64,000 bases of DNA, taken from assembly GCA_964402785.1 (NCBI GenBank), contig CAYODQ010000004.1, positions 159 through 64,158 of the forward strand. Direction: 5' to 3'. Positions 33,417-54,678 of the stretch are shown here, piece after piece; position 1 is the stretch's first letter, and every line of letters starts with the position of its first letter. Below the pieces are notes generated by a model. That model saw only the letters and a program-made list of their open reading frames with translations, was not told the origin of the DNA and ran no database searches. The position numbers and the translations under genes are program-made. Source of the DNA: an uncultured Planctomycetia bacterium. Lineage in GTDB: Bacteria > Omnitrophota > Gorgyraeia > 2-02-FULL-51-18.

Positions 33417-34156
33417 TCTGGGTATTTTTGCCTGCTTATAACGAAGAAATAGCATTGCCGCGGCTACTCAAAAAATTCGACGATGTTTTGAAGGCAGGCC
33501 CAGAGAAATACTGTGTCGTGATTCAAGACGACGGCAGCTCTGACGGGACAGCGGCTGTCGCAGAGAAGCTTTCTAAACAATATCCGATCACCGTGCTTCG
33601 TCATGAGAAAAATTTGGGTCTCGGCGAGACGATGCGTGACGGGTTTAATTATCTTGTTGGAAAGGTTTCTGATGAGGATGTGATTGTAACATTAGATTGC
33701 GATGATACACACGAGCCTAAATTTGTGCCGGCAGCTATTCAAAAACTTCGTTCTGGCTATGACTTGGTAGCTCTCTCGCGATTTTGTAAAGGGGGAGGGC
33801 AGGAAGGTTTGTCTGGGCTTAAAAGTATTTTAAGTATGGGGGCTGGGATTTTTTTAAAGATATTGTTTCCAATACGAGGCCTCCATGAATACAGCTGTAA
33901 TTTTAGGGTGTTTACCGGGGCTCTCCTTAAGAAGGCAGATAAAGTGCTGGGGAAAAATTTTATACAGCTGGCTCATTTGGGATTTGCAGTTTCTCCTGAG
34001 ATCTTGATCAGGATGCGAATGTTGGGCGCGAAGATAGCTGAGTCGCCATTTGTACTTCGCTACGATCAGAAGCCCACCGCAAGTAAAAATAACTCATTGA
34101 GGACGATCAGGGGTTATTTTGCATTGGCGCGTTTGTATTGGTTGAGAAAAGTTTGA
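33413..34156 (+). CDS. GT2 glycosyltransferase, polyprenyl-phosphate sugar synthase type (DPM1/GtrB-like)
   Basis: 'FLPAYNEE', 'QDDGSSDGT' and 'DCDDTHEP' (DxD) motifs. Confidence 0.8.
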   Translation: MIWVFLPAYNEEIALPRLLKKFDDVLKAGPEKYCVVIQDDGSSDGTAAVAEKLSKQYPITVLRHEKNLGLGETMRDGFNYLVGKVSDEDVIVTLDCDDTHEPKFVPAAIQKLRSGYDLVALSRFCKGGGQEGLSGLKSILSMGAGIFLKILFPIRGLHEYSCNFRVFTGALLKKADKVLGKNFIQLAHLGFAVSPEILIRMRMLGAKIAESPFVLRYDQKPTASKNNSLRTIRGYFALARLYWLRKV

Positions 34157-39033: not shown

Positions 39034-39034
39034 C

Positions 39035-39454
39035 ATGAAAGCATTTCGCTTTTCTGATATCCGTTTAGGGCAACAGAAAAGTAAGCGTTATATTCTCACC
39101 CGAGAGGTGTACGAGGGTTTCCTCGCCACTTTTAAAGACACAAACCCCCTTCATATCGATGATCGTTTTGCCAGAAGAGCCGGATTTAAATCCAAGGTCA
39201 TGCACGGCGCCATTCTTAATGGGTTTATATCGAATTTTATTGGTACTTGTTTTCCGGGAAAACATGCGGTGCTGCACTCGGTTAGCATACAATACCGCGC
39301 TCCTGTTTATTTGGGGGACGCTCTTCTTCTTAGATCAAAAGTTGAACATAAATCGGCAGGCACCAAAACAATTCTTTTGAATATTTCTTGGTTTCACGTT
39401 TCCCCTAAACATCTTGTTGCTACAGCAAAAGTTCAAGTGGGGGAGACCGCATGA
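39035..39454 (+). CDS. MaoC-like (hotdog-fold) dehydratase
   Basis: 'DTNPLHIDDRFARRAGFKSKVMHGAIL' is the hotdog hydratase signature. Confidence 0.75.
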   Translation: MKAFRFSDIRLGQQKSKRYILTREVYEGFLATFKDTNPLHIDDRFARRAGFKSKVMHGAILNGFISNFIGTCFPGKHAVLHSVSIQYRAPVYLGDALLLRSKVEHKSAGTKTILLNISWFHVSPKHLVATAKVQVGETA

Positions 39455-40164
39455 AGGTTTTGGTGGTGGGTGGCAGTGGCGGGATAGGCGCAGCTATTGT
39501 TGAGCAGCTATGCGCCGAGGGTAACGAAGTTTGGTTTACGTACCGATCCGGACGGGCTAAAGCGCAGGCTTTGGAGGCTAAAACGCAGGCAAAAAAGATC
39601 GAGTTTGATTCCAACTCCCAGGACTCATTGGATCGTCTGTCGGGGTGGTTGGGGGCAGCAATGCTGGATGGGCTGGTCTATTCAGCAGCCGAAAAATTTG
39701 AGAGAGAGACGCTTTTTAAAATGCAAACAGAGCCTTTTTTGGCCTACATCGATAAAAGCCTTCGCGGCTATTACGCGATCTCGCAAGCGTTCGCTTGCGC
39801 TCTTAAGGGCCGAAAATCACCGGGAGCCGTTGTAAATATCCTGTCCTCTGTTGTGACGGGTTTGCCTCCAGCCAAGCAGGCAAGTTATGTGACATCCAAG
39901 TATGCGCTTTTGGGGCTCATGCGCTGTCAGGCTATCGAGTTTGGGCCGTACCATGTTCGGGTCAACGCCGTGTCTCCCGGGATGGTTCGTACCGATTTTA
40001 ATTCGGATCTTCCAGATCGTTTCATCGAGATCTATGTCGAGTCTTTACCGATGAAGCGCCTTGTTTTGCCTGAAGATGTTGCTAAAGCAGCTTGCTATCT
40101 TTTATCGCCGGAAGCTTCGTTTATCACGGGCATCCAAGTACCTGTGACAGGTGGTGCGGCATGA
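39451..40164 (+). CDS. SDR-family oxidoreductase (ketoreductase-like)
   Basis: 'VLVVGGSGGIGAAIVEQL' Rossmann motif and 'YVTSKYAL' YxxxK. Confidence 0.75.
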   Translation: MKVLVVGGSGGIGAAIVEQLCAEGNEVWFTYRSGRAKAQALEAKTQAKKIEFDSNSQDSLDRLSGWLGAAMLDGLVYSAAEKFERETLFKMQTEPFLAYIDKSLRGYYAISQAFACALKGRKSPGAVVNILSSVVTGLPPAKQASYVTSKYALLGLMRCQAIEFGPYHVRVNAVSPGMVRTDFNSDLPDRFIEIYVESLPMKRLVLPEDVAKAACYLLSPEASFITGIQVPVTGGAA

Positions 40165-41948
40165 TGAAATACGGCTTAGAGGAACTAGACTATATGCGCC
40201 TTTGCAGGGAAGCAAAGAGGATCCCGCCGCAGGAAGGTGCTAAAAAATTAAAAATAGCCGTGATGGCGGATTTTTCTTCCCAACAATTGACGCTTGTCTT
40301 AAAGGCTCTCTGCCACAAAAGCGGGCTTGCAGCCGAGATCTTGGAAGCCGAGTTTGATTCCATAGATCATATGATCTTGGCCCAAGACTCAGCGTTGGAG
40401 GCTTTTTTGCCGGATCATATCGTGTTGCTCGAATCCACGCAGGCGCTGAGAAACCGATACGGCTCGTTTAAAGGCTCGGCGCAGGAATTTGCTTCTGAAA
40501 AGATACAAGAGTTGGAAAGGCGCTGGAATAAGATACGGCAGAAATACCCAAAGGCTACGATCCTTCAAACGAATTATGTTTTGCCGTACGAAAGGCCGTT
40601 TGGAAACTACGGAAATAGGGTTTCGGGATCTTTTTTGTCATCGGTTCAGCATATCAATGAGGCGGTCTCAAAAGGTAGTGTTTCGGGAGCTAATATTTTC
40701 AGGCTTGATATCGAGTCGCTCGCATCTTATGTAGGCAAAAAAACTTGGTTCGATGAGCGGCTATGGTCGTTGTATAAATACCCTTGTGCTCTTGAATTTC
40801 TTCCATTCATCGCACAATCGATTGTGGATGTGGCCGTGGCGCTTCAGGGCGGCGGCATCAAATGTGTCATACTGGATCTGGACAATACACTGTGGGGTGG
40901 TATTGTCGGAGATGACGGCGTGGATGGGATACAGCTGAGCCATGGCGAAGAAGGGGAGGCTTTCCTTCTCTTCCAATCGTTCCTTTTGGATCTTAAAAAA
41001 CGCGGTGTTCTTTTGGCTGCTTGCAGCAAAAATGATCCGGAGAACGCAAAGCTTCCTTTTACTCAGCGCCCGGAGATGATTCTTAAGCTGGATGATTTTG
41101 CGGTGTTCGTTGCCAATTGGGAGGATAAGCCCGGAAATATTCGGTTGATCCAGGAAACGCTCAATATAGGTTTTGATTCATTGCTGTTCTTGGATGACAG
41201 CGCTTTTGAGCGCAATTTTGTGCGTCAGGCATTACCCGATGTTGTGGTGCCTGAGATGCCGGAGGATCCGGCACAATTCGTTAAGTTTCTCACTGAACTG
41301 AATTTATTTGAAGTTGCATCGCACTCGGAGGCTGATTCTTCGCGTACCCAGATGTATCAAGAGGAGTTCCAACGCAAACAACTCAAGACAAGCTTTGAGG
41401 ATCATGATGATTATTTAAGATCGTTGGATATGAAGATACGGCTTGAGCGCTGTACATTACACCATTTACCGCGCATGGCGCAACTTTTGCAAAGAAGCAA
41501 TCAATTCAACCTTTTGACCCGCCGGTTCACTGAAGCGCAGTGCGAAAGTTTTATGAATGATGAGCGCGGAGTGCTGCCTTTGTGTGTTACGCTGCAGGAT
41601 AAATTCGGGGACTACGGGATGATCTCGAGTGTCGTTGTTTCCTGGGGCCAGCGCGAAGCAGCCATCGAGGAATGGGTGATGAGCTGCCGTGTTCTTTTTC
41701 GGGGCGTCGAGCAGTGCATCATGAATCATGTTGTCGAACAGGCCAAGTCCAGAGGATTTAAGCGGCTCTTGGGCCGCTACATTCCTACGGATAAAAATAA
41801 AATGGTAAAAGACTTCTATTTAGGTTTTGGTTTTGAGCCAAATGGCGCAGCTGCAAATGATGGCAGTCAGCAATGGACGCTGGATCTTGCTCATTATCAG
41901 CCCAAAAAAGTTTGGATGGAGGAAATATCACTCGCTCAGAAAGCATGA
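40161..41948 (+). CDS. FkbH-like HAD-IIIC family protein (putative ACP-loading glyceryl transferase/phosphatase)
   Basis: HAD motif I 'VILDLDNTLWGG' in the middle of the protein, an N-terminal ~230-aa accessory domain and a C-terminal GNAT-like domain. The architecture and ~600-aa size match FkbH/HAD-IIIC proteins. Confidence 0.65.
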   Translation: MMKYGLEELDYMRLCREAKRIPPQEGAKKLKIAVMADFSSQQLTLVLKALCHKSGLAAEILEAEFDSIDHMILAQDSALEAFLPDHIVLLESTQALRNRYGSFKGSAQEFASEKIQELERRWNKIRQKYPKATILQTNYVLPYERPFGNYGNRVSGSFLSSVQHINEAVSKGSVSGANIFRLDIESLASYVGKKTWFDERLWSLYKYPCALEFLPFIAQSIVDVAVALQGGGIKCVILDLDNTLWGGIVGDDGVDGIQLSHGEEGEAFLLFQSFLLDLKKRGVLLAACSKNDPENAKLPFTQRPEMILKLDDFAVFVANWEDKPGNIRLIQETLNIGFDSLLFLDDSAFERNFVRQALPDVVVPEMPEDPAQFVKFLTELNLFEVASHSEADSSRTQMYQEEFQRKQLKTSFEDHDDYLRSLDMKIRLERCTLHHLPRMAQLLQRSNQFNLLTRRFTEAQCESFMNDERGVLPLCVTLQDKFGDYGMISSVVVSWGQREAAIEEWVMSCRVLFRGVEQCIMNHVVEQAKSRGFKRLLGRYIPTDKNKMVKDFYLGFGFEPNGAAANDGSQQWTLDLAHYQPKKVWMEEISLAQKA

Positions 41949-42835
41949 TCCAGAGATTATCCAATATGGCTCAAGAGAAGACGCCTTTCTTTTCTGATGT
42001 GTGGAAGCGGCAAGAGGAGGAGTTTGGGCATGCATGGGCCAAGGATCTTTCAGAGAATATTTCAAGCCTGCTTGGCCGGGAGAGCGATGAGAGCTGGGAG
42101 AACATGCTCTTTGGATATGCTGATTTTTCAATGGAGGCCGTGCGGCATCAAAAGTATTTTGAGGAGCATCGCGAATACCAGAAGCTTTCTCCCGATCATT
42201 CGCTCCAGGCCTTTTATGATGATGAGAATTTCATGATGACCACCTATTTGCCGGGTTTGTTTCTTTCACATTATTTGTGGCGGCATCATTACCGTTTGCT
42301 CAACTATTTCAGGCAGGAGGTCTTGGCGGGCTTGGTGCCTCCGAAGATGTTCTATGAGATCGGTGTGGGAACGGGGCTTTATTCCTGCGAGACACTGAAG
42401 GCGTTCCCGCATGCAAAAGGCAAGGGCTTTGATATTTCAAGGTATTCGGTGGATTTTACAAAAAAGCTTCTGGATGCCCACAGTTTGTCCGGGCGTTATT
42501 CGTTGGAGATTGCGGATATATTCAAATCCAAGATATCGCCCGATAGCGCTGATTTTTTGATATGCCAGGAAGTGTTGGAGCACTTAGAGGATCCGGCTGC
42601 GCTTTGCCGTGTTTTACTGAAGATAACAAAGCCCGGTTCAAAGGCGTATATCACGGCGGCGCTCAACGCAGCTCACACGGATCATATTTATCTTTTTCGT
42701 ACTCCCTCTGAAGTGGAAGCAATGCTGCGTGGAGCGGGCTGGGACATCCTGGGATCGCGTTCAGAGTTGGCGTATGACGGGAAGCCGGCAGGCATCACGC
42801 CTTGTGTCGCCGGTTTCCTGTGCAAGAAACCATAA
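41945..42835 (+). CDS. Class I SAM-dependent methyltransferase (possible O-methyltransferase)
   Basis: Motif I 'YEIGVGTGL' and motif II 'ADFLICQEVLEHLEDP'. ATGA-coupled to the FkbH-like gene. Confidence 0.65.
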   Translation: MIQRLSNMAQEKTPFFSDVWKRQEEEFGHAWAKDLSENISSLLGRESDESWENMLFGYADFSMEAVRHQKYFEEHREYQKLSPDHSLQAFYDDENFMMTTYLPGLFLSHYLWRHHYRLLNYFRQEVLAGLVPPKMFYEIGVGTGLYSCETLKAFPHAKGKGFDISRYSVDFTKKLLDAHSLSGRYSLEIADIFKSKISPDSADFLICQEVLEHLEDPAALCRVLLKITKPGSKAYITAALNAAHTDHIYLFRTPSEVEAMLRGAGWDILGSRSELAYDGKPAGITPCVAGFLCKKP

Positions 42836-42857
42836 CGCTTTATTCATAGGAGATAAG

Positions 42858-43109
42858 ATGCCGGAAACCAATGCGCAAGATACAAGATCAAAGCTCAATC
42901 GGGTGTTTCAAGAAGTGTTTGGGGATGACTCCATCCAGATTTCGGATAATATGACCGCGAAGGATATCGATGGTTGGGACTCGCTGACCCATGTGAATCT
43001 GATCGTAGCGGTCGAGAAGCGGTTCAAGATCGCGCTCACCACGAAAGAGGTGGTGTCACTGCGCAATGTGGGTGATTTTTATAATCTGATCTTAAAAAAA
43101 ATCTCTTAA
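42858..43109 (+). CDS. Acyl/peptidyl carrier protein (DltC-like)
   Basis: 83 aa with 'DIDGWDSLTHVNLIVAVEKRF', the DSL phosphopantetheine site. Strong SD AGGAGA 7 nt upstream. Confidence 0.75.
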   Translation: MPETNAQDTRSKLNRVFQEVFGDDSIQISDNMTAKDIDGWDSLTHVNLIVAVEKRFKIALTTKEVVSLRNVGDFYNLILKKIS

Positions 43110-43112
43110 TCA

Positions 43113-44519
43113 ATGCCTTTTAATTCGATCGAGTTTTTTGTGTATTTGTGGCTGTCGCTGGCCGCATTTTATGCAACCCCTCTGCGATTTAGGCGGTATA
43201 CGCTTCTCTTTGCTTGTTATTTATTCTATGCGCTTTGGAACCTTAATTTTTTAGGGCTCCTGATCCTTTCAACAGCAATCGCTTACGGTTTGGCTCGATG
43301 GATGCAGCGAGCGGCGGATGCAGGCCAAAAGCGGATCATTTTGCTCGTCGGACTTGTTTATTTTCTCGGCAGTTTTGTTTTTTTTAAAGGTTTGCCAATT
43401 TGGCGCGGACAGTTTTGTTTTCTATCATCCGTGGTCATGCCTATCGGGCTTTCTTATTATACTTTTCGGCTTACGAGTTACCTGATCGATGTGTACTGGG
43501 AAAAAATAAACCCGGAAAATGAGCTGCTAAGCTTTGCATCGTACGCAGCCTTTTTTCCGCATCTTTTGAGCGGCCCAATTCAAAGATCGAATGAATATTT
43601 TCCTCAGCTCCATATCAATAAAAATGAGCCTAATATTGCACTATGGGCCTCCGGATTGCGCCTTATCCTCTGCGGTCTTTTTAAGAAACTTGTTATTGCG
43701 GATAATATTGGAGTGGTTGTGGATAATGTTTTTGGCCATGCTTCAATGTATAACTCAACGGCACTCTGGATAGCTGTGTACGCTTTTTATATCCAAATAT
43801 ACGCCGATTTTTCGGGGCTAGCCAATATCGCGATCGGTGCTGGTCAGTTGTTCGGAATTGATTCGCCGCCCAATTTTAATGCGCCTTATATGGCCAAGAA
43901 TGTGCAAGATTTCTGGAGGCGCTGGCATATGACGCTATGCCGATGGATTAATGATTATTTGTTTTTACCATTAAGAATGTTTTTGAGGGGTCAGGGAAAT
44001 GCTGGGTTAGTTTTGAGTGTTTTTATCAGCATGTTGGCTATAAGTCTTTGGCATGATGTTTCGTCGGGTTTTATTGCGTTTGGTATCATCCAGGGAACGC
44101 TGATTAGTATTTCTACTTTTAGCATGAGGCCGCGCGACGACTTTTTTAAGTGTCATAAAAGCTTGGCTCGTCTGCGTTCCATTGCAGGCGTATTCATTAC
44201 GTTTCATTTAATGGTATTTTCTTTTATTTTTTTTCGCTCGACTACCGCTGCGGCTGGATTTGATTATATACGCGGCTTATTTGCGGGATCGTTCAAATTC
44301 ACCGGGCTTGGGATGGGTTTAGGGCCCAAAGCTTTGATGGGATGTTTCTTGGCGTTGATTTTGGCCGAATTATTTGAATACTCACTCAAGACTCGAGGCC
44401 GGTGGGGTTTTGAACGCTTGCCTCAAGCGTCCCGATGGGGTGTCTATTATGGGATGATGGGTGCCTTTTTATGGTTTGGTCGATTTTGGCCCAAAGAATT
44501 TATATATTTTAAATTTTGA
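43113..44519 (+). CDS. MBOAT-family membrane-bound O-acyltransferase (DltB/AlgI-like)
   Basis: 'FWRRWHMTLCRWINDYLFLPL' is the conserved MBOAT His region, with about 10-11 TM helices. Confidence 0.8.
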   Translation: MPFNSIEFFVYLWLSLAAFYATPLRFRRYTLLFACYLFYALWNLNFLGLLILSTAIAYGLARWMQRAADAGQKRIILLVGLVYFLGSFVFFKGLPIWRGQFCFLSSVVMPIGLSYYTFRLTSYLIDVYWEKINPENELLSFASYAAFFPHLLSGPIQRSNEYFPQLHINKNEPNIALWASGLRLILCGLFKKLVIADNIGVVVDNVFGHASMYNSTALWIAVYAFYIQIYADFSGLANIAIGAGQLFGIDSPPNFNAPYMAKNVQDFWRRWHMTLCRWINDYLFLPLRMFLRGQGNAGLVLSVFISMLAISLWHDVSSGFIAFGIIQGTLISISTFSMRPRDDFFKCHKSLARLRSIAGVFITFHLMVFSFIFFRSTTAAAGFDYIRGLFAGSFKFTGLGMGLGPKALMGCFLALILAELFEYSLKTRGRWGFERLPQASRWGVYYGMMGAFLWFGRFWPKEFIYFKF

Positions 44520-45556
44520 TGATCAGACGCTTCATTAAATATTTTGGTTTCAGAATGGCGATATTTTTTTTACCTATCGCTCTGCTAATGTCTTTCCCAG
44601 CCTGGGTTCTTTGGGTTTCGGGAGAGTGGACTCCCATGGATAAAGTTGTGCAAGCACAGCAAGTATTAAAAGTGCCTTTGAGAGTGGGTTTGGCGTATAG
44701 CAACCCAGCCAAATATTACAAACTCAAGTCGCTTATGGCCAGAAATGCCGAAATCGTTGCTTTTGGGAGCTCTCACTTGATGGCGTTTCGCGAAAATTTT
44801 TTTACTCCCCGCACTTTTTACAATGCAGCTGTGGGCGGATCCCGTCTTAATGATTTTGAGAAATTCATCTCACATGTGCCGATAGATTGCCAGCCCAAGA
44901 TCTTGATCGTGGGGTTGGATCCTTTTTTTGCCAAACCTGATTTTGATTGGTCCCAAAAGGAAGAAGATCGCTTCGACCGTCGAGCGGGGCCGCTGGATGC
45001 TATTCGCATCCTGGGAACTTCCTGGAAAAGTGTTTACAAGGATCTTTTCTTGGGCAAGTTTTCCGCGAGTCAACTATTGGCCGCGAATGATATGGACGAT
45101 AAGCCCATAGGTCTCGAGGCGGTTGTGAAAGGAAGTGGATTTTTGAATGACGGGGCTTATTTCCATAATAAGCCCGCATCCGCAGCCGAAGGTGAGGCGC
45201 CCGACCGTTCCAATTTAAAAGACGGGGAAACGTACGACGAAGTCGGGATAAACATGTTGGATCGTTTTTTGCAGATATGCCATGACCGCAACCTACGTGT
45301 GATCGGTATCTTGCCGCCCGTGCGTGAGCGCGTATACGATCAGCTAAACTCATCCGGATATTTATATTGGAAGGAGCTACCTAAAAAACTTGAACCCTTT
45401 TTTAAAAGTAGGGGTTTTTCGATATATGATTTTTCAAGCCCATCTTTTTATGGCGGAAATGACGCGGAATTCTATGACGATTTTCATGCTGCCGAAGACG
45501 CATATAGACGCGTTGCAGATAAGATTATCGAGTTAGAACAGCTTTCCAAGCCCTAA
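44516..45556 (+). CDS. DltD/AlgJ-like SGNH-fold acyltransferase partner
   Basis: N-terminal TM anchor, 'VAFGSSHLMAF' (Ser nucleophile block) and 'DDFHAAE' (DxxH catalytic block). Confidence 0.55.
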   Translation: MMIRRFIKYFGFRMAIFFLPIALLMSFPAWVLWVSGEWTPMDKVVQAQQVLKVPLRVGLAYSNPAKYYKLKSLMARNAEIVAFGSSHLMAFRENFFTPRTFYNAAVGGSRLNDFEKFISHVPIDCQPKILIVGLDPFFAKPDFDWSQKEEDRFDRRAGPLDAIRILGTSWKSVYKDLFLGKFSASQLLAANDMDDKPIGLEAVVKGSGFLNDGAYFHNKPASAAEGEAPDRSNLKDGETYDEVGINMLDRFLQICHDRNLRVIGILPPVRERVYDQLNSSGYLYWKELPKKLEPFFKSRGFSIYDFSSPSFYGGNDAEFYDDFHAAEDAYRRVADKIIELEQLSKP

Positions 45557-45610
45557 CCTCTTTGCTATCATAAAGTAGATTCCGTAACTATATATTTAAA
45601 AAGGACTTAG

Positions 45611-47239
45611 ATGACTAAGCGCGCCTTATTTTCGGTTGTTTTGCTTTTGGCCGCTTTATTTGGTCAGATTTTTTTTTCCATGCAAAAAAAAGCCCCCACT
45701 TGTGATGAGTTTGCCCATCATACAGCCAGCGGCTTCTCACACTTGGTGACTCGGGATTTCCGGATGAATCCTGCTGCTCCGCCTCTGCCCAGGCTTCTAT
45801 CGGCGATACCTTTGTATTTTTTGGGTGTAAAGGCACCGCTGGACGATGTGTCTTGGGAACAGGGTGATAGTCCGGCGTTTGCTCAAAAATTTTTCTATCA
45901 AGAAGGTTTTACCCAGGATGAGATCATTTTTTGGGCGCGATTGCCCATATTGCTACTTTCTCTGGTTTTTGGTTTTTTTGTGTATCGATGGTCATCCGAG
46001 CTGTTTGGCTTTGTCGGCGGAATAGCCTCTTTGGTTTTATTTGCATTTTGTCCGGACATTCTTGCACACTCAGGGCTTGCAACGTCTGACCTATCCGTCG
46101 CCTTCTTTTTTTATATGACGATTTGGCGGTTTTGGAAATATTTGGATAAGCAAAACGCCAAGAATTTGGTTTTGGCCGGGGTGATGGCCGGACTAGCGTT
46201 TCTTTCTAAATTCTCGGCTATCCTTATTTTCCCCACACTGATATTGGTTGCCGCTCTTAGTCGCTCATGGAAAAAATTGTCGATCGGGAAGATCGCGATG
46301 TTTATTGCCGTGTGTTTGTTTGTCGTGTGGGCGGGCTATGGTTTTGAGATAAAACCTCTTCTAGAGAATACTCCAGACCCACCAAAAAAAATTGCCGTGT
46401 ATCGCCAAATTGGGGGAGAGAATTTGGTGCATTTTGCTGAAAAGGTTCCTGTGCCGCTGTCCACATTTGTATCCGCCTTTAGCAGTATGATGTTCACGCG
46501 AGCCAAAGGGACAAATGCATTTTTTATGGGCGAGTGGTCCCATGGAACCAAAAGTTTTTGGCAATATTATTTTGTCGCTTTTGTGATCAAGAATACAATT
46601 CCATTTTTGATTCTGATCTTATTTTCTTTTTTTACGATGCGTTCGCTGAGTATAGATAAGGTGACACAGGCAGCGCTTTTAACTCCTGTTGCTTTTTTGT
46701 TTTTGGTGACGACGGGTGACAAAGCTCAGGCGGGTATCCGCTATTTCCTGCCCATCTATCCGCTGCTGTTCGTGTTGTGTGGGGGTTGTGTAGCCTGGCT
46801 GTGGAAAAATAAAAAGATCATGCGCTGGCTCGCTGTTGCGTTGCTATTTTGGCACGCCTATGAGGCAATTCGAATTTATCCAGATTATTTATCCCATTTT
46901 AATCAGCTGATCGGTGGCCCTGATCAAGGTCATCGTTATTTGCGAGATTCGAATATTGATTGGGGTCAGGATTTGAAGGGTGTGGCCGAGTGGGCACATG
47001 AGAATCATCACGGTGAAATTACTTTGGTGACCATATCTCCTGTGGATATGAAAAAGGCTTATGGTGTTGAATGGCGACTCATGGCTCCCGAGGAAAACCT
47101 CCAGCCCGGGCCGTATGTTTATGCGCTGGGGCTACATAATTTTGATACAGCAAAATGGACGCAGCATATCAAACCCGATAAAATCGTAGGTCACTCGGTC
47201 TGGATATACGATTTTACAAAAAAAGGAGATCTGGTTTGA
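45611..47239 (+). CDS. GT-C glycosyltransferase, PMT/ArnT (GT39/GT83)-like
   Basis: N-terminal 'CDEFAH' DE motif in the first loop and a multi-TM PMT_2-like architecture. Confidence 0.7.
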   Translation: MTKRALFSVVLLLAALFGQIFFSMQKKAPTCDEFAHHTASGFSHLVTRDFRMNPAAPPLPRLLSAIPLYFLGVKAPLDDVSWEQGDSPAFAQKFFYQEGFTQDEIIFWARLPILLLSLVFGFFVYRWSSELFGFVGGIASLVLFAFCPDILAHSGLATSDLSVAFFFYMTIWRFWKYLDKQNAKNLVLAGVMAGLAFLSKFSAILIFPTLILVAALSRSWKKLSIGKIAMFIAVCLFVVWAGYGFEIKPLLENTPDPPKKIAVYRQIGGENLVHFAEKVPVPLSTFVSAFSSMMFTRAKGTNAFFMGEWSHGTKSFWQYYFVAFVIKNTIPFLILILFSFFTMRSLSIDKVTQAALLTPVAFLFLVTTGDKAQAGIRYFLPIYPLLFVLCGGCVAWLWKNKKIMRWLAVALLFWHAYEAIRIYPDYLSHFNQLIGGPDQGHRYLRDSNIDWGQDLKGVAEWAHENHHGEITLVTISPVDMKKAYGVEWRLMAPEENLQPGPYVYALGLHNFDTAKWTQHIKPDKIVGHSVWIYDFTKKGDLV

Positions 47240-48279
47240 GTCAGCTTGGGATCGGGATCATTGGCGGGGGATTTGGGGTTCGGGCTCATTTGCCGGCATT
47301 TCGAGCGGATAAGCGGTGCAAGATCCAAGCGATAGCGCTAAGCTCCAGCTCCAAAGCTGCGCGTGTTGCCAAAGCTTATAAGATCCCTAAAAGTTATGGA
47401 TCCTGGAAAAGCTTGATCGAAGACACGGGTATCCATGCGATCAGCCTTGCGGTGCCTGCCGTTTTACAGCCGGATATCATCGAGTACGCGATCAAACATC
47501 AAAAGCCATTTTTTATTGAAAAGCCTTTGGCTGTCGATTTGGCGACGGCTCGTGAAATATCCAAAAAAGTTCTCTTGTCTAAACTCCCGCATGTGATTGA
47601 TTTTGAATTGCCACAAACATCGGCTTGGAGCAAGGCTAAGGCATTGATAGAGGCCGGCAAGCTGGGTCAAGTGCGACATGTGCTTTTAAATTGGCAACTC
47701 ATCACAGCTGCTAATAAAGAGGGCCAGCGTTCTTGGAAGACGGAGTCTGCTCAGGGCGGGGGGGCGCTTAATCTTTTTGCGAGTCATTCATTTCATTATT
47801 TAGAATGGCTTCTGGGGCCCATTGATGCGGTGAATGCGCGCTTACTCAAGGGCGCGGGGATTGTCGGTGACCAAGAAACACTTTGTGCGATACGCGTCCG
47901 ATTTAAAAAAGGGTTTTATGGAAATTTGACGGTGGCGGGTCATTGTCTTCATGGCAGCGGTCATCGTTTGGAAATATATGGTGATCGCGGGACACTTGTA
48001 CTTGCCAATAGCGTCGCGGGTGCGCTCGATCAGTTTCAGCTTTTCTTTGGATCGATAAATGACAGAGGGTTAAAGCGTATCCATACGACCCTAGCTCGAA
48101 AGCCTAAGAATGCTCGCGGTCGGATAGGTGCGGTGAGTGCTCTTGTGACCGCATTTGTATCGGCCGTCATAAAGAGGGGGCAAGTCAAGCCGGATATTCA
48201 AGATGCCTTGCGCGTGCAAGAGCTTTTGGATGCGGTTCGGAGGTCGCATGATGCATCGGGGCAAGCTATTTTTCTATGA
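47236..48279 (+). CDS. Gfo/Idh/MocA-family NAD(P)-dependent oxidoreductase
   Basis: 'GIGIIGGGFGVRAHLPAF' Rossmann N-terminus and 'EKPLA' motif. Confidence 0.75.
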   Translation: MSQLGIGIIGGGFGVRAHLPAFRADKRCKIQAIALSSSSKAARVAKAYKIPKSYGSWKSLIEDTGIHAISLAVPAVLQPDIIEYAIKHQKPFFIEKPLAVDLATAREISKKVLLSKLPHVIDFELPQTSAWSKAKALIEAGKLGQVRHVLLNWQLITAANKEGQRSWKTESAQGGGALNLFASHSFHYLEWLLGPIDAVNARLLKGAGIVGDQETLCAIRVRFKKGFYGNLTVAGHCLHGSGHRLEIYGDRGTLVLANSVAGALDQFQLFFGSINDRGLKRIHTTLARKPKNARGRIGAVSALVTAFVSAVIKRGQVKPDIQDALRVQELLDAVRRSHDASGQAIFL

Positions 48280-49970
48280 TCTCGTATAAAAAAAAGATCA
48301 TGGGGATCCTTTTTATAGCATTTTTATTACGTATGATCGGAATAGGTTTTGGATTGCCACACATCTATCATCAAGATGAGCCCATTATTGTGAATCACGC
48401 ACTTTCGATAGGCGCGGGTGGCTGGAACACGCATTTTTTTGTGATACCTCCTTTTACGATCTATTTCTTTTTTATTGCCCAGGGCGTTTATTTTGTGGTC
48501 GGAAAGCTCATAGGTATATTTCAGACATCTTCTGATTTTGCTCTTATGTTTATGCGAGATCCCACATCCGTCTATTGGATAGGCCGGTTTTTGCTGGGTG
48601 TTTGTTTCGGGACAACCACTGTCTGGGCGCTGTGGGTTGGATCTAAGCGTTTTTTTGGTGAAAGGGTAGCTTTTTGGGCGGCGCTACTTTTAGCTATTAC
48701 GCCTTTGCACGTTCAACACAGCCACTATATTTACGCCGATATACCGCTGACATTGGTTGTGACGATAAGTTATTTTGTGCTTTTATCAATACTTGAAGCG
48801 CCTCTGCTTCTCAGCTATCTCCGCTTTGGGGCGCTGATGGGCTGGGCAGCGTCTATCAAATATACGGGGCTTTATTTTGCGCCAATGATTGGATTGGCGC
48901 ATATGATCAGTCAGCCTAAAAACTGGTATAAACCGTCGCAAGTTATCAAATTGATCTTGTCGGGCGCTTCCTGCATCACTGTTTTTTTTATTTTTGCGCC
49001 GTTTAGTTTTCTGGACTGGAAAAATTTTTGGGGACAAATAAGTCATCAGGGCGGCGCTGAGAGCTTTGTGGGGCTCACGCATCATGCGGTGTATTCGATC
49101 GTGGGTGGGAGTGGTGTCGCATTTGTTTCGCTGGGGGTTCTTGGACTAATTGTGCTGGCCAAGAATGACATGCGCAAGGCCTGGATCACGGCCGGACTAC
49201 TACTTGTCTATTATGGGATCAATGTTGTATTTTCTCAGAATTTTGCGCGCTACATGCTTCCGCTTATGCCTGTACTGGCGCTTCTAGCGGCGATGGCGCT
49301 ACATAGACTTGGTCAGCTTTTGGAAAAAAAACGCGGTTTAATGATCGCGCTTCTCACCGTTCTTTGTGCAGAGCTTTTGGCGCCCACGGTTTATTTGGAT
49401 GCACTCTTTCTGGGTCAAGATACGCGTACCGAATGTGCTCAGTGGTTTGCTGACAATGTTGACGAGTCAAGTCCAGTTGCTGTGGACAATCGTTTTTTTG
49501 GCCCGCCTCTTCCATTATCAGAAGCGCAAATCAAAGGGAAGTATGCGAAGCTTGGCGGGTCTCAAAAGGATGATGTGAGGAAAAAGCGGCTTGACCTGAT
49601 GCTTGAAGGCTTAAAAGATCGCAAAGGATATAATGTCTATCAATTGGTTGCTCATGAAGACGAGTCGACTTCTCCATTTCTTTTTATGGGCCCTTTTGTG
49701 AAACAAGATTGGGATTCTATTGAGAAAGCAGGCGTCGAATACATCGTGATCCATACCACTGATTTTGACCAGTCAGCTTCAAATTTTGTCCGCGCTTCTC
49801 CACAAAAGGCTGAACTTTTGCGTTCATTTAGCCCTTACCGCGATCCTTTGAGGAAAATGAGCTTCGATCCGGAGGCATCCACGGCGGCGCCGCATTTGCC
49901 GAATGAAATATTTAGCCGTCACCTCTTGGGCCCTTATTTGGAGGTGTATCGTGTCAAACGAGACGGCTGA
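48276..49970 (+). CDS. GT-C glycosyltransferase, PMT/ArnT-like
   Basis: 'HQDEP' DE-loop motif, multi-TM N-domain and a C-terminal soluble domain. Confidence 0.65.
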   Translation: MISYKKKIMGILFIAFLLRMIGIGFGLPHIYHQDEPIIVNHALSIGAGGWNTHFFVIPPFTIYFFFIAQGVYFVVGKLIGIFQTSSDFALMFMRDPTSVYWIGRFLLGVCFGTTTVWALWVGSKRFFGERVAFWAALLLAITPLHVQHSHYIYADIPLTLVVTISYFVLLSILEAPLLLSYLRFGALMGWAASIKYTGLYFAPMIGLAHMISQPKNWYKPSQVIKLILSGASCITVFFIFAPFSFLDWKNFWGQISHQGGAESFVGLTHHAVYSIVGGSGVAFVSLGVLGLIVLAKNDMRKAWITAGLLLVYYGINVVFSQNFARYMLPLMPVLALLAAMALHRLGQLLEKKRGLMIALLTVLCAELLAPTVYLDALFLGQDTRTECAQWFADNVDESSPVAVDNRFFGPPLPLSEAQIKGKYAKLGGSQKDDVRKKRLDLMLEGLKDRKGYNVYQLVAHEDESTSPFLFMGPFVKQDWDSIEKAGVEYIVIHTTDFDQSASNFVRASPQKAELLRSFSPYRDPLRKMSFDPEASTAAPHLPNEIFSRHLLGPYLEVYRVKRDG

Positions 49971-50658
49971 CTATTACAAGGATTATTGGGTGGATGAGAC
50001 CCAAAAACGAAATAAACGAGCTTATTATGAACGATTGTATTCACATATCCGACCTCGACTTTATTTGGATCCAGCTTGGCGACTTTTGGATGTGGCGGGC
50101 GGCAATGGACACCTCCTGCAATACCTTGGCGTCGTCAAGGCGGATATTCTTGATATAAGTGAATCGGGTCTTCTCGCCGCCAATGCAGCTGGCTACGGCG
50201 CAATTTGTGGTGATATCCAGCGCAGATTCCCTTTTCCAGAGCAAAGCTATGATGCCGCACTTTGCTTTGAAGTGCTGGAGCACTTGCCGTATCCGGGTAA
50301 GACTTTGGCAGAGATCAATAACGTCTTGAAGTCCGGAGGTGTTTTGTATGTTGGTCAACCCAATATGAGAGCCGATGGCGTGCACCACGTGAGGCGGTAT
50401 TATTTGAAACCGCTCTTGGACGATCTTAAAAAAGCAGGATTTGGTATTGAGTGGGTGGATCATGTTCCGGCGTATTCGATGCGAGATGCTATTGTGAGTG
50501 ACATCCGTCATAACAAATCCTTTGTTAGGAAGACAATCCAATGTCTCAATCTTGTTTTGAGTTTGCTTCCCTGGCGCGTGAGATATGCCATGGCAAGTAT
50601 TTGGCCGGATCGTTTTTCTCTCATATTGGTTGTGAAAGCTATCAAACCCAATGAATAG
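49903..50658 (+). CDS. Class I SAM-dependent methyltransferase
   Basis: Motif I 'LLDVAGGNGHL' and motif II 'YDAALCFEVLEHLPYP'. The start is uncertain; GTG 49951 is possible. Confidence 0.65.
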   Translation: MKYLAVTSWALIWRCIVSNETADYYKDYWVDETQKRNKRAYYERLYSHIRPRLYLDPAWRLLDVAGGNGHLLQYLGVVKADILDISESGLLAANAAGYGAICGDIQRRFPFPEQSYDAALCFEVLEHLPYPGKTLAEINNVLKSGGVLYVGQPNMRADGVHHVRRYYLKPLLDDLKKAGFGIEWVDHVPAYSMRDAIVSDIRHNKSFVRKTIQCLNLVLSLLPWRVRYAMASIWPDRFSLILVVKAIKPNE

Positions 50659-53053
50659 CTTTATCCGCAAACACATTTGTTTTATCGCTCTTTACGGGAG
50701 CTTGTTTGTGATGCTTTTATGGCCACTTTTGATTTTCCAGAAAACTTTTATTTTTGGCGACTATTGGCAGCAGCACTATCCATGGGCGTACGAATACGCA
50801 CGTCTTTTAAAAATGGGACAACTTCCTTATTGGGTGCCAAGCGTTGCTGGCGGGTTCCCATTGTTAGCCGAAGGGCAGGTTGGAGCCTATTATTTACCAC
50901 ATCTTTTGTTGTATTTCTTTCTCCCGTTTTCAGTTGCGTATTCGCTCCTAATTCTTCTCCACACGCTTTCCGGCGGTGTTGGATTTTATGTGTATGGCCA
51001 AAAGATAGGGTTTTCAAAAGAAGCGGCTACGCTCATGAGCCTGCTCTTCTCATTTTCTAGTGCTTTTGGCGGCTGTTTTTCCAACACCGCAAGCCTGAAA
51101 GTGTTGTCTTGGTTGCCATGGTGTTTGTTGGCTTGGGAGTCCCTTGGGCATTCATCCGGAAAAAATAAACTACTTTGGATATCAGCTATAGGTTTTATGT
51201 TTGCGCAGATGTGGACAGCTGGAGCGCCGCAGATGGCGCTGTACGGCGTGGGATATTTATTTTGTTTTTGGATGGCAGAAAAGAGAGGGAAGGGCTTTTT
51301 GTTTTTTTTAGCCGCCTTTGTTGTAGGCGCCACTCTTTCGCTACCCCAATGGGCTTCAACCATGGAGCTTGTTCGTGTGTCGACGCGCGCGGGAGAAACA
51401 GCCGGTTTTGTTTTTTGGGGCTCGGTTGAGTTGCCTGCCGTGATCTCTCTTGCCTATCCAAGATGGGGGACTTTTTTGGGCGTCTCGTTATACATTGGTC
51501 AGGCTGCACTTTTGCTGACCCTTATCTCGCTACTGTCAAAGAAATCGCGTCTTGAAAAGCTTCATTGGTGGTTGGCTGTTTTTTTCTTCGTGCTGGCTTT
51601 AGGCAACAACGTCCCTTTTTTAGAAGCGCCGCTATCGTATGTAGTGGAGAGATTTTCTCTCACAGCTCTGCGCAACCCTTCGAAGTTTTTATTTTTTAGC
51701 ACGGTTTCGCTGTCGATTATTGCGGGCTTTGCCTTTGACCGCCTGAGGCATTTGTCTTTAGAGGAGAAGACCAGGAAGCGGCTAAGATTGGGGCTTTGGA
51801 TTTTTTGGGTGGGAGTGGTAGCGGCGCCTTTGATGGGGCAAATGGTATTCCAGTATTTTGAAAAACCGCTCAAGGAATTTGCGAATCGCGGTGCGGAGGC
51901 AGCTTTTTCAGGAAAGAAAGACCCCTTCCATTCCATTTCTTATTATCAGGACAAAGCAGATCAAATGCTCGTTGAAGCACAAAAGCTTTTTAATTATACA
52001 GACAAGTGGAATATTCTAGCTATCTCATTTTTGTGCTTATCTTTTTTATTTGTCATGCTGCTCTTCAAGCGGGATTCTTCCGGCAAGTGGAAAAGAGGCG
52101 CTTTGCTTGCCGTGCTCTGGTTGGATCTCCTCATTTACGGATTGTTTATCGGCAACGGCTTTATTGGCAATGTTCGAGCGTATCCGAACGATCTTCCAAA
52201 AGTTTTTATCTCTGAGATTTTGGAACAGCAGCAGTCCAAGCACAGCGCTCTCATTGGTTGGCCGGATGAACACAATCAGGAAGCTCTACCCGCAAACACC
52301 AACCTGCTATATGGTTTTAATCATGCGGGCGGATACTCACCGCTATTGCTTAAGAGGTATTATGAGCTAACCAAGGAGCTTGGTATTTCCGACAGCTCGC
52401 TGGGTCGCCGTCCTTATTCGGAAGATATATGGAAAAATGAGTCCGGCCTCGTGCATGCGCTAGGAATAGGCCAAATACTATCTAACAAGGAGCTCTCAAT
52501 ATCAAGCACTCGTCTTTTGAGCCTCAGTCATCAGAGACGCTCCCCGGGTAACTCATCGGAGGATCATTATCTGTATACCTTCGAACCGATTCTGCCTTAT
52601 GCGTATCTGGTTTTTAATTGGAAAAGTATGTCGGATGAGAAGATCAGGCTGGCCTATTTGAAAAGTGATGAATTTGTTCCTTTCAAAGAGGCCGTCATTG
52701 AGAGCGCGCCCACGGATCGGCTGCCCCGCGCTGATCTTTTGATGACCCCTGTGCACACCCGATCAAAAAAAGACACAGAATTTGTTTTGGATGTCGATGT
52801 TGCGTCCGATGCGTTGCTCGTTGTCCGAAGTGCATTTTATCCGCGATGGAAAGCGGAGCTAGACGGAGAAGAGTTGGTTGTGATGCCGGTTAATCATATC
52901 TATTCAGGGGTATTTCTGAAAGCGGGGCAGTGTGAGGTCAGGTTTTTTTATGATACGAAGCCGCACCGTTTTTTTGAATCCATATCGCTGACGTTGGGTA
53001 TGGTTCTGCTGCTCATGCAAGTGATAATTTTATGGATTTTGCCAAAAAAATAA
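50651..53053 (+). CDS. YfhO-family membrane glycosyltransferase-like protein (GT-C fold)
   Basis: 800 aa polytopic with the YfhO-like N-terminus 'IFGDYWQQHYPWAYEYARLLKMGQLPYWVPSVAGGFPLLAEGQ'. Confidence 0.6.
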   Translation: MNSFIRKHICFIALYGSLFVMLLWPLLIFQKTFIFGDYWQQHYPWAYEYARLLKMGQLPYWVPSVAGGFPLLAEGQVGAYYLPHLLLYFFLPFSVAYSLLILLHTLSGGVGFYVYGQKIGFSKEAATLMSLLFSFSSAFGGCFSNTASLKVLSWLPWCLLAWESLGHSSGKNKLLWISAIGFMFAQMWTAGAPQMALYGVGYLFCFWMAEKRGKGFLFFLAAFVVGATLSLPQWASTMELVRVSTRAGETAGFVFWGSVELPAVISLAYPRWGTFLGVSLYIGQAALLLTLISLLSKKSRLEKLHWWLAVFFFVLALGNNVPFLEAPLSYVVERFSLTALRNPSKFLFFSTVSLSIIAGFAFDRLRHLSLEEKTRKRLRLGLWIFWVGVVAAPLMGQMVFQYFEKPLKEFANRGAEAAFSGKKDPFHSISYYQDKADQMLVEAQKLFNYTDKWNILAISFLCLSFLFVMLLFKRDSSGKWKRGALLAVLWLDLLIYGLFIGNGFIGNVRAYPNDLPKVFISEILEQQQSKHSALIGWPDEHNQEALPANTNLLYGFNHAGGYSPLLLKRYYELTKELGISDSSLGRRPYSEDIWKNESGLVHALGIGQILSNKELSISSTRLLSLSHQRRSPGNSSEDHYLYTFEPILPYAYLVFNWKSMSDEKIRLAYLKSDEFVPFKEAVIESAPTDRLPRADLLMTPVHTRSKKDTEFVLDVDVASDALLVVRSAFYPRWKAELDGEELVVMPVNHIYSGVFLKAGQCEVRFFYDTKPHRFFESISLTLGMVLLLMQVIILWILPKK

Positions 53054-53085
53054 TCTAGAGTTCTTTGGGATGGGGCGGGGGCGGT

Positions 53086-54561
53086 ATGCGCGGTAAAAAA
53101 TGGGTGGCCTTGATCTTTGCGCTTGCAATATTTGTGAGGGTCTATAATCTAAACGTCCCATTTGTAGAGCGTTTTAACAGTATATCTCGTCTCTCCAACT
53201 GCGCCTCGGTAGCGCGGAATTTCTACACGAACGGTTTTAATTTCTTTTACCCGGAAATTGACGAAAATGGCCCGGGACCTTATCTTCTCAATGCCGAGAT
53301 GCCGACCAATACTTATTTGATGGCGTTGGCATATGCACTTACGGGTGGTGTGCATGAGTGGGCCGCGCGCGCCGTCTCGGTGCTTTTTTCGCTGGGAACC
53401 CTTCTTGTCCTGTATCTGTTTATTCGAAAGCTTGCCAACGAAAAAATGGCGCTTTATGCTTTGGTCTTCGCATCCTTCTCACCCATGAATGTCGCTTTGG
53501 CTAGGTCTATTCAATGTGATACCACCATGGTCTTTGCAGGGCTATGGGCGCTATATTTATTTTATCGCTATAGTGAGACGGGACGATGGGCCCATCTTTT
53601 AGGATCTGCGTTTGCCATGGCTTTGGCTGTCGGGACCAAGATTTACGCTTTGTACTTATTCATCCCTATTATATATTTGGCTTGGGAGCGGGAAGGGTGG
53701 GTGATCTTTAGGCGGCCCCGATATTATTTGTACTGTTTTCTGGTTTCTCTTACTCTGATCTGGTATTTTTACATGTGGAAGGCGGGGAAAGGGCAACAGC
53801 TAGCCTACTCGACGTTTGGCTACCCGGAAGGTCTTGTTCAGGGTCGTTTTGGGTTTCTTAAGCTTTTTGGGATGCCCCATATAAAAATGCCCGCGGTGGG
53901 TTTGGCGGCTCATATCTTGACGCCTGCAGGCATAGTCTTATTTGCGTTCGGACTATTTAGGAACACATTTAAAAGTCATCGATTTGCATGGGTGTGGCTA
54001 TTTTCAGTTGGCTTTTATTTGCTGGTCATGTGGCCGATGGTTGTGATGCATCCGTATTATTTATTACCCGCGATTCCCCCCATTGCTTATTTTGTTGCTT
54101 TGGGAGCGCAGCGCATCCTTTTGAATCCGCGCTTTGCGATTGTTAGACGGACATGGTTTTGGTTGCCAGTTTGCGCACTCGTTCTACTGAGTGTGTTTTA
54201 TTATTACCGCCTGCTCTATTTTATCCCAAAAGATAGGATGTCCATTGTGGAGGCGGGGAAGGCGACCGACTCTTTGACTCCCAGGGATAGTTTGGTCATC
54301 GCTTCCTGGGGTGAGAGCCCGATCCAGCTATATTATTGTAACCGAAGGGGATGGTCTTTTAGTTTGGACAGACCAGACGGAAGCGGCTTGATCGAGAGTC
54401 TCGAAGAAAAAAGAAGTCGGGGTGCCGGCTATTTTATGACCACTCATGTTGATCAGCTTCATCGCTTGCCGCTGTTTGAGCAGTATTTACGTTCCCGATA
54501 CTCTGTGGTGAAGGAAAGCGGGGAGATGATCCTTTTTGACCTAAGGGCAGAGGGGGCTTGA
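53086..54561 (+). CDS. GT-C glycosyltransferase, ArnT/PMT-like
   Basis: 'YPEIDENGP' acidic loop, >10 TM helices and a C-terminal soluble domain. The start is taken at ATG 53086; the ORF-track start is TTG 53065. Confidence 0.65.
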   Translation: MRGKKWVALIFALAIFVRVYNLNVPFVERFNSISRLSNCASVARNFYTNGFNFFYPEIDENGPGPYLLNAEMPTNTYLMALAYALTGGVHEWAARAVSVLFSLGTLLVLYLFIRKLANEKMALYALVFASFSPMNVALARSIQCDTTMVFAGLWALYLFYRYSETGRWAHLLGSAFAMALAVGTKIYALYLFIPIIYLAWEREGWVIFRRPRYYLYCFLVSLTLIWYFYMWKAGKGQQLAYSTFGYPEGLVQGRFGFLKLFGMPHIKMPAVGLAAHILTPAGIVLFAFGLFRNTFKSHRFAWVWLFSVGFYLLVMWPMVVMHPYYLLPAIPPIAYFVALGAQRILLNPRFAIVRRTWFWLPVCALVLLSVFYYYRLLYFIPKDRMSIVEAGKATDSLTPRDSLVIASWGESPIQLYYCNRRGWSFSLDRPDGSGLIESLEEKRSRGAGYFMTTHVDQLHRLPLFEQYLRSRYSVVKESGEMILFDLRAEGA

Positions 54562-54678
54562 TGGATAAAAATCCAAACAACCGATATTTAGATATCGTTT
54601 ATGTTCTGTGGCTGGTTTGGGTTGTGAGCGTTTACGCACTGTTGGTGATCATTCCTAAAATCCAAGGAAAAATCTAAA

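Follow-up and report, generated by a model that had tools for sequence, protein, structure and literature searches.

In the Dlt system (DltA-DltC-DltB-DltX-DltD), which D-alanylates teichoic acids, a small acyl group passes from a dedicated carrier of about 80 amino acids (aa) to an MBOAT, from there to a membrane-anchored SGNH protein and finally to the polymer, and a 2023 review states that DltB is the only MBOAT with a carrier-protein donor (PMC10213974). A 2025 mechanistic paper states that the other bacterial MBOAT/SGNH pathways work without a carrier protein; in its PatA/AlgI-type MBOATs an FXYXXF acyl-shuttle motif is fused on two extra helices, whereas DltB lacks these and uses the DltX microprotein (Anderson et al., PMC12148441). 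Carriers are also charged by FkbH enzymes, which transfer a glyceryl unit of 1,3-bisphosphoglycerate to an acyl carrier protein (ACP) by way of an S-linked enzyme intermediate, FkbH being one member of the methoxymalonyl-ACP pathway FkbG/H/I/J/K (PMC9057759). According to PMC4765723 (citing He et al., Angew Chem 2014), dehydratase-ketoreductase (DH-KR) proteins turn glyceryl-S-ACP into lactyl-S-ACP in FR901464 and lankacidin biosynthesis. Here we compare with these systems a seven-gene cassette at 39035-45556 of a 64,000-nucleotide stretch of contig CAYODQ010000004.1 (the whole stretch is called the window below), which belongs to a Candidatus Omnitrophota metagenome-assembled genome.

The cassette consists of seven open reading frames (ORFs), all co-oriented on the + strand (Table 1), which encode a MaoC-type dehydratase, a FabG-like short-chain dehydrogenase/reductase (SDR), a long-form FkbH, a class I methyltransferase, a dedicated ACP, an MBOAT and an SGNH-fold partner (gene 7). 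We propose, with a probability of about 0.6, that they form an operon-like module by which an envelope polymer outside the cytoplasm receives a small acyl ester derived from glycerate. FkbH would take the glyceryl group of 1,3-bisphosphoglycerate onto Cys509, its HAD domain would strip the phosphate, and the glyceryl would then pass to the phosphopantetheine on Ser42 of the 83-aa ACP. The MaoC protein would remove water from glyceryl-S-ACP to give pyruvoyl-S-ACP, the SDR would reduce the alpha-keto group to give lactyl-S-ACP, and the methyltransferase could, as an optional step, O-methylate the free hydroxyl to give a 2-methoxypropanoyl group. The acyl-ACP would dock at the cytoplasmic face of the MBOAT, whose catalytic histidine would move the acyl group through the membrane to Tyr465 of the enzyme's own FIYFKF shuttle, and the SGNH partner would accept it from Tyr465 onto Ser86 before forming the ester on a periplasmic or surface acceptor.

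The gene junctions are tight. ATGA overlaps join MaoC to SDR, SDR to FkbH and FkbH to methyltransferase, the SDR being coupled in this way on both sides; a 22-nt gap with AGGAG preceding the ACP separates methyltransferase and ACP, 3 nt lie between the ACP stop codon and the MBOAT start, and MBOAT and gene 7 overlap in TGATG. The seven genes are read as one unit within a long co-directional array; a promoter and terminator scan of the cassette gave counts no higher than in shuffled controls and was uninformative. A previous, sequence-only reading of this DNA had described seven packed + strand genes here. This is borne out with two refinements, the ACP gene occupying 42858-43109 and gene 7 most likely starting at the ATG at 44519, which gives 345 aa as in P0121. 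The motifs that it had listed (DLDNTLWGG, WDSL, WRRWHMTL, GSSH and DDFH) were all found in the cassette proteins, and profile matches agreed with the families that it had named for genes 1-6. The window also holds a complete housekeeping type II fatty acid synthase (FAS II) cluster at 14365-20326 (plsX, fabH, fabD, fabG, acpP, fabF and fabI). Since its fabG (17245-18003) and acpP (18030-18278) are separate from the cassette SDR and ACP, the latter are dedicated extra paralogues.

The putative loader has the domains and residues expected of its family. It matched TIGR01686 at 2.6e-92 over positions 3-320 of 323 (309 bits against a cutoff of 147) and TIGR01681 with 62 bits against a cutoff of 36, and its N-terminal domain matched FkbH_N (PF21211) at 8.7e-30. 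It aligned with PDB 3slr, a solved fragment of B. fragilis BF1531, at 1e-81, and over its full length with the lankacidin-cluster HAD-IIIC protein at 2e-49. We aligned it with six cassette homologues and with a zwittermicin-cluster homologue from a Bacillus thuringiensis plasmid, taken as ZmaN by gene order (its record is annotated only as a HAD-IIIC phosphatase). Invariant in this alignment were D239, D241, T243, S289-K290-N291, K323, D345-D346 and S508-C509-R510-V511, and the catalytic cysteine and HAD residues are all shared with the presumed ZmaN; a loss of these residues, which the sequence-only reading had named as grounds against its idea, is not seen. From its motif (MSCRV) and its invariance here, we take Cys509 to be the acyl-accepting cysteine. 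The window protein shares with the polyketide loaders FkbH, OzmB and ZmaN an FkbH domain that passes the family cutoff, the HAD DxDxT motif, the SCRV cysteine and an adjacent stand-alone ACP. It differs from them in being a long form with FkbH_N, like the lankacidin-cluster protein and BF1531, in having an MBOAT as its downstream partner rather than a polyketide synthase (PKS) or nonribosomal peptide synthetase, and in the absence of FkbK, FkbI and FkbG homologues from the cassette.

The ACP matched the PP-binding family at 9.5e-5, with a predicted phosphopantetheine site at Ser42 (WDSL) of its 83 aa; the WDSL motif is conserved in the family, WDS being kept in at least 80% of 75 cassette ACPs. 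Its best solved relative was the uncharacterised ACP of PDB 2lml (4e-17), whereas DltC in PDB reached only 0.31 and the DltC model NF003464 6.7e-4, far under its cutoff. The MBOAT matched PF03062 at 5e-20 and the DltB model TIGR04091 at 1.1e-51 (176 bits, under the cutoff of 375). H272 (in WRRWH), H314 (taken as the universal MBOAT histidine by position), F463, Y465 and F468 were invariant across 22 homologues. Alignment with DltB structures was restricted to residues 2-375 (2e-25); residues 376-468, beyond DltB, hold two hydrophobic segments, one clear (about 403-421) and one weaker (about 439-457), and the terminal FIYFKF. This end (F463-I-Y465-F-K-F468) fits the FXYXXF motif, which was found in all three classes of related MBOATs, and its role as an acyl shuttle follows from the motif function described in PMC12148441. 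No small ORF with an FxYxxF C-terminus, as in a DltX-like microprotein, was found in 38500-46000. By these sequence features, the MBOAT is a PatA/AlgI-type fused-shuttle enzyme and not a DltB-type one. The loop after WRRWH, at MBOAT residues 280-293 (about 43950-43991), varies by class: in ACP-less relatives it is shorter, with Arg at 280 (91%) and Gly-Gly at 288-289, and in ACP-linked MBOATs it lacks Arg 280 and has a few extra residues, a difference that could reflect recognition of acyl-CoA versus acyl-ACP.

Gene 7 gave weak profile matches to DltD, DUF1574 and GDSL (about 1e-4, the DltD model below its cutoff). It has an SGNH fold, with DltD as the longest structural match and Ser86 and His324 as catalytic candidates, and is membrane-anchored with the domain predicted to face the periplasm. 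A word-based homologue search returned 13 proteins only, and an iterated profile was needed instead; over the fetched loci it found 109 homologues, nearly all adjoining MBOAT genes, an adjacency that validates matches of a profile that may drift. The same partner family is common to ACP-less MBOAT relatives. In the S. meliloti cassette, the partner (409 aa) is annotated as a 'TonB-dependent receptor' and matches the SGNH-partner profile at 1.2e-14, and L086 is a like case; judging from this match, the S. meliloti annotation is probably wrong. On the - strand of the window, an 853-aa AsmA/YhdP-like protein at 10593-13154 agrees with a diderm envelope, which would provide a periplasm for the SGNH partner to act in.

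The cassette thus resembles Dlt in its overall logic (a small acyl group on a dedicated carrier, an MBOAT, a membrane-anchored SGNH protein and a polymer), in the structural match of gene 7 and in the DltA-like enzyme of sister cassettes described below. Moreover, lactyl, if it is the product, would be the hydroxy analogue of alanyl. It differs in several respects: 39035-45556 encodes no AMP-binding protein (DltA), FkbH standing in the loader role and, by analogy, drawing on a glycolytic acyl-phosphate with no ATP-dependent adenylation; the shuttle is fused to the MBOAT on two extra helices and is not a DltX; the ACP is no DltC orthologue; dehydratase, reductase and methyltransferase tailoring on the carrier has no Dlt counterpart; and the hosts are diderm or non-Firmicute bacteria. 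The parallel previously drawn between the last three genes and DltC-DltB-DltD therefore stands for the carrier/MBOAT/SGNH logic and not for orthology, given the DltC score of 0.31, the fused shuttle and the lack of a DltX. With PatA/PatB and AlgI/AlgJ the cassette shares a catalytic-histidine MBOAT, a fused FXYXXF acyl-tyrosine shuttle and a separate SGNH partner encoded directly downstream. Those systems are described as using acetyl-CoA without a carrier protein (PMC12148441), whereas the cassette links a carrier gene and a loader to the MBOAT and has a distinct loop after WRRWH.

Gene linkage across genomes argues that these proteins act together. The order MaoC-SDR-FkbH-(methyltransferase)-ACP-MBOAT-partner recurs in four other Omnitrophota contigs (L001-L004), with MBOAT identities of 75%, 61% and 43% and no methyltransferase in the most distant, so that the cassette is no chance juxtaposition. 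A metagenome scan seeded with FkbH gave 80 loci, 34 of which had at least 3 kb on both flanks; an ACP lay within 1.5 kb in 30 of these 34 and an MBOAT within 5 kb in 25. A genome scan seeded with the MBOAT gave 68 loci with enough upstream sequence. An ACP was present in eight, immediately upstream of the MBOAT in seven of them, and all eight carried a loader: FkbH in four (Acidobacteriaceae, Bryobacteraceae, Prevotella and Muribaculaceae) and a DltA-like adenylation enzyme in four Bacteroidota (L023, L053, L061 and L085). The other 60 loci had neither ACP nor loader. Cassettes were also found outside any glycan locus in three cultured Alphaproteobacteria: on S. meliloti pSymB (L170, 6703-11266), where a four-gene cassette of MBOAT, partner, ACP and FkbH adjoins an lsr/AI-2 transporter operon; as a stand-alone cassette on a plasmid of Rhodobacteraceae SC52; and on Tistrella mobilis pTM1 (partner, MBOAT, ACP, methyltransferase and FkbH). 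With representatives in Omnitrophota, Acidobacteriota, Bacteroidota and Alphaproteobacteria, the cassette is a widespread mobile module, often without GT-C neighbours, and is not peculiar to the window. The co-occurrence analysis that the sequence-only reading had proposed thus links FkbH, ACP and MBOAT across phyla, and this linkage provides strong genomic evidence that the ACP would be the acyl donor for the MBOAT.

Linkage of this kind also bears on a rival explanation, in which the MBOAT and SGNH proteins are an ordinary acetyl-CoA-dependent O-acetyltransferase pair (AlgI/AlgJ or PatA/PatB), the FkbH-ACP-MaoC-SDR-methyltransferase set serves a separate purpose such as supply of N-acyl groups for amino sugars, and the genes adjoin solely because they share a glycan locus. 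A fused FXYXXF shuttle is typical of acetyl-CoA users (PMC12148441), the 60 ACP-less loci show that most related MBOATs have no carrier nearby, a DegT aminotransferase lies in the window locus and hexapeptide N-acyltransferases in those of relatives, and the FkbH-domain gene of Campylobacter jejuni (PMC7099621) sits in a locus for sugar N-acylation. However, FkbH, ACP and MBOAT stay linked across phyla, and also in stand-alone islands without glycan genes; the ACP gene directly precedes that of the MBOAT in nearly every ACP-positive genome locus, and its presence correlates perfectly with that of a loader; conservation of the cassette does not extend to any candidate N-acyltransferase; and the DltA-like loader in the same position of sister cassettes mirrors the logic of the dlt operon. 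We therefore regard this explanation as improbable and favour transfer of the ACP-bound acyl group by the MBOAT.

The sister cassettes indicate that the carrier can be charged in two ways. Their amino-acid adenylation enzyme of about 500 aa aligned over its full length with DltA models (about 1e-80) and occupies the position of FkbH, and the window ACP found the ACPs of these AMP-linked cassettes at 1e-13 to 1e-18. The ACP family is the same whichever loader is present, and the ACP therefore goes with the MBOAT, not with the loader. We take this as strong genomic evidence that FkbH and the DltA-like enzyme would be interchangeable loaders, and the earlier claim that FkbH acts here in place of DltA is supported by its catalytic residues, by the cross-phylum linkage and by these sister cassettes. 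Whether the family forms a second lineage of carrier-protein-dependent MBOATs, of PatA/AlgI type with a fused shuttle, an ACP charged by FkbH or a DltA-like enzyme, combinatorial tailoring and glyceryl or lactyl esters across four phyla or classes, is in our judgement evenly balanced. We found no description of an FkbH-ACP-MBOAT cassette in the literature searched, outside whose coverage lies Schultz et al. 2023, which might mention ACP-linked MBOATs; the family is apparently uncharacterised. If the proposal holds, the generalisation that DltB is the sole carrier-protein-dependent MBOAT would fall, glycolysis would be linked directly to envelope decoration without ATP-dependent activation, and glyceryl, lactyl and their O-methyl ethers would be new ester substituents of bacterial surface polymers. 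Possible effects of such a modification concern symbiosis, recognition by phages or the immune system, and polysaccharide properties, and the hypothesis is directly testable, as cultured, genetically tractable bacteria (Sinorhizobium meliloti with its pSymB, Tistrella mobilis and gut Bacteroidota) carry the cassette.

We then considered which acyl group the window cassette might transfer. The MaoC protein matched PF01575 at 2.9e-12, and its hydratase-2 residues Asp35 and His40 were invariant among 14 cassette-linked homologues. The SDR matched adh_short_C2 at 3.5e-44 and FabG models at about 1e-40, under their cutoffs, and has the motifs GGSGGIG and Y146-x3-K150. The methyltransferase matched Methyltransf_11/31/12/25/23 at 1e-8 to 1e-10, and the domain search gave it no match to the FkbG-type O-methyltransferase family (family 3). 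No cassette protein matched FkbK (3-hydroxyacyl-CoA dehydrogenase family), FkbI (acyl-CoA dehydrogenase family) or FkbG, and the methoxymalonyl-ACP route was rejected for this reason; the previous suggestion that SDR, dehydratase and methyltransferase are analogous to FkbK, FkbI and FkbG does not fit. By analogy, MaoC and SDR instead match the DH-KR pair reported to make lactyl-ACP (PMC4765723). In both cases a hotdog dehydratase (Asp/His) and an SDR (YxxxK) are encoded beside FkbH and an ACP; the window has a separate gene for each domain, both products resemble the characterised proteins only remotely, and their function would be the same by analogy. By hhalign, the split MaoC proteins, that of the window included, matched the DH portion of the fused DH-KR proteins, a family that includes those of the lankacidin cluster and the FR901464 producer, with 98.3% probability (E = 1.1e-14). 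An intermediate case is an Acidobacteriaceae cassette (L006), which holds the closest relative of the window MBOAT in the genome collection and has a fused MaoC-SDR beside FkbH-ACP-MBOAT. This fused protein matched an SDR-annotated protein of the lankacidin cluster (pSGRIFU1, adjoining ACP and HAD-IIIC genes) at 8e-32 and, at 7e-29, the N-terminal end of the product of a giant PKS gene in the FR901464 producer Burkholderia sp. FERM BP-3421, and we consider it orthologous to the DH-KR proteins. Split MaoC and SDR genes accompanied FkbH-ACP in nine of the 80 metagenome loci. In bryostatin biosynthesis, the BryA loading module reportedly combines DH, KR, FkbH and ACP domains. Orthology of the window MaoC and SDR themselves to characterised DH-KR proteins was dropped in view of their weak BLASTP scores (0.006 and 2e-7), leaving relatedness at the profile level, and because of this remoteness the lactyl step is a domain-level analogy supported by gene position.

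The methyltransferase has homologues in FkbH-ACP-MBOAT cassettes without MaoC or SDR (L129, L157, L162 and Tistrella mobilis pTM1, the last at 7e-27 and 248 aa) and is missing from the Omnitrophota cassette L004. We propose that it is an optional tailoring enzyme that would O-methylate a carrier-bound hydroxy-acid. Tailoring genes look combinatorial, with glyceryl as the predicted product where there are none, lactyl with DH and KR, and O-methyl-glyceryl with the methyltransferase; by the same analogy the window, with all three, would probably make O-methyl-lactyl. Di-O-methylglyceroyl groups have reportedly been found on C. jejuni flagellin glycans. The flagellin-glycan locus of that species has the FkbH-domain gene cj1302 (PMC7099621).

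Granting the general mechanism, lactyl or O-methyl-lactyl is our tentative assignment, at somewhat less than even odds. The same machinery might instead transfer glyceryl, O-methyl-glyceryl or another C3 derivative, with MaoC and SDR performing, for example, an oxidation at C3. Most FkbH-ACP-MBOAT cassettes lack MaoC and SDR and hence would transfer plain glyceryl, the cassettes with a methyltransferase and no MaoC or SDR imply O-methyl-glyceryl, and MaoC and SDR of the window have little similarity to characterised DH-KR proteins. We nevertheless hold this variant unlikely for the window, where a hotdog dehydratase and an SDR beside FkbH-ACP form the domain set described for lactyl-ACP in PMC4765723, where both genes are ATGA-coupled to FkbH, and whose closest MBOAT relative in the genome collection has a fused DH-KR orthologue at its side.

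Several points weigh against the proposed module and its lactyl-type product. About a quarter of the well-flanked FkbH loci have no nearby MBOAT; FkbH also feeds other acceptors, and its linkage to MBOATs is strong and not obligate. The fused-shuttle architecture belongs to enzymes for which acetyl-CoA is the proven or presumed donor (PMC12148441), ACP use being read only from linkage. FkbH-linked MBOATs fall into clusters together, apart from ACP-less ones, in a comparison confounded by the different sampling of the two sets. For the acyl group, the window MaoC and SDR scored only 0.006 and 2e-7, respectively, against the lankacidin-cluster DH-KR protein, the SDR looks more FabG-like than DH-KR-like, and the substrate and regiochemistry of the methyltransferase are putative. 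The acceptor is suggested by neighbouring genes in Omnitrophota only, while other hosts carry the cassette without GT-C genes. More generally, every chemical step that we infer for members of the family, like the acyl identity and the acceptor, is deduced from what was observed, namely domains, catalytic residues, fold, gene coupling and cross-phylum co-occurrence.

Table 1. Cassette genes and flanking genes, in window coordinates.
Feature	Position	Strand	Details
GT-C (MptB/PMT_2-like) glycosyltransferase	35199-36605	+	upstream of cassette
824-aa polytopic membrane protein, central spermidine-synthase-like (aminopropyl/methyltransferase fold) domain	36559-39033	+	upstream
MaoC-type (hydratase-2 hotdog) dehydratase	39035..39454	+	139 aa; PF01575
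FabG-like SDR	39451..40164	+	237 aa; adh_short_C2
Long-form FkbH (FkbH_N + HAD-IIIC + C-terminal Cys domain)	40161..41948	+	595 aa; TIGR01686, PF21211
Class I S-adenosylmethionine-dependent methyltransferase	41945..42835	+	296 aa; Methyltransf_11/31/12/25/23
Dedicated ACP	42858..43109	+	83 aa; PP-binding, Ser42 in WDSL
MBOAT with fused C-terminal acyl-shuttle motif	43113..44519	+	468 aa; PF03062
Membrane-anchored SGNH-fold partner (gene 7, DltD-like)	44519..45556	+	345 aa; SGNH fold
Three PMT_2 GT-C, GFO/IDH/MocA oxidoreductase, methyltransferase, two large membrane proteins	45611..56505	+	downstream

The genes around the cassette (Table 1) suggest where the acyl group might go. The sequence-only reading had placed the module upstream of a GT-C locus, which is correct for the genes from 45611 onwards; a further GT-C gene lies upstream, and the cassette is therefore flanked on both sides. 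The genes of 45611..56505 likewise follow the cassette in L001-L003, and further genes around it in the window and in its Omnitrophota relatives encode polyprenyl-phosphate-type GT2 enzymes and a DegT aminotransferase. Judging from these neighbours, the most likely acceptor in the window is a glycan of the periplasm or the cell surface that the flanking GT-C enzymes would build. The gene for the 824-aa membrane protein ends 1 nt before that of MaoC, and L002/L003 have a homologue at this place; the protein may be part of the modification pathway as well.

These surroundings fit poorly with a reading of the cassette as a fragmentary polyketide or other natural-product pathway, with FkbH-ACP supplying a starter or extender unit (as for FK520, zwittermicin, lankacidin and tetronates) and the MBOAT acylating a small molecule. 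It is true that all biochemically characterised FkbH proteins come from such pathways (PMC9057759, PMC4765723), and that, in the literature searched, FkbH and MBOAT are mentioned together only in papers on the cyanobacterial aeruginosins and suomilide. Apart from housekeeping FAS II, however, the 64-kb window has no ketosynthase, condensation, adenylation or thioesterase genes, for which the PKS-fragment reading was rejected; the neighbours are glycosyltransferases, and a membrane-anchored, periplasm-facing SGNH partner is typical of envelope polymer acylation. We give the natural-product explanation very little credence beside modification of an envelope polymer.

Further features of the locus are recorded here in their own right. 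Four PMT_2/MptB-like GT-C genes flank the cassette, an unusually dense array that is conserved with it in Omnitrophota. Neither of the two large membrane proteins (800 aa and 608 aa) matched a Pfam family, and a homologue of the 800-aa protein in L002 had a faint YfhO match. An AT3-family (PF01757) membrane acyltransferase without a fused SGNH domain, at 34138-35247, lies in the same glycan locus, which may carry through it a second, independent acylation route. In L004, the SGNH partner gene is followed first by an extra ALGX-like gene (PF16822, weak) at 12522-13898 and then by a nonulosonic-acid set (NeuB/PglD/DegT), a sign that the acceptor sugar may differ in that contig. The glycan locus is immediately preceded in the window, at 25219-32294, by a menaquinone gene set of the futalosine route (UbiD, a UbiA prenyltransferase, a UbiX-type flavoprotein, two MqnC/MqnE-like radical SAM enzymes and MqnA, PF02621). 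Finally, packed co-oriented genes at 927-7109 encode membrane proteins, among them DUF2339 (1113 aa), an M48 peptidase, DUF2157 and a GDYXXLXY protein.

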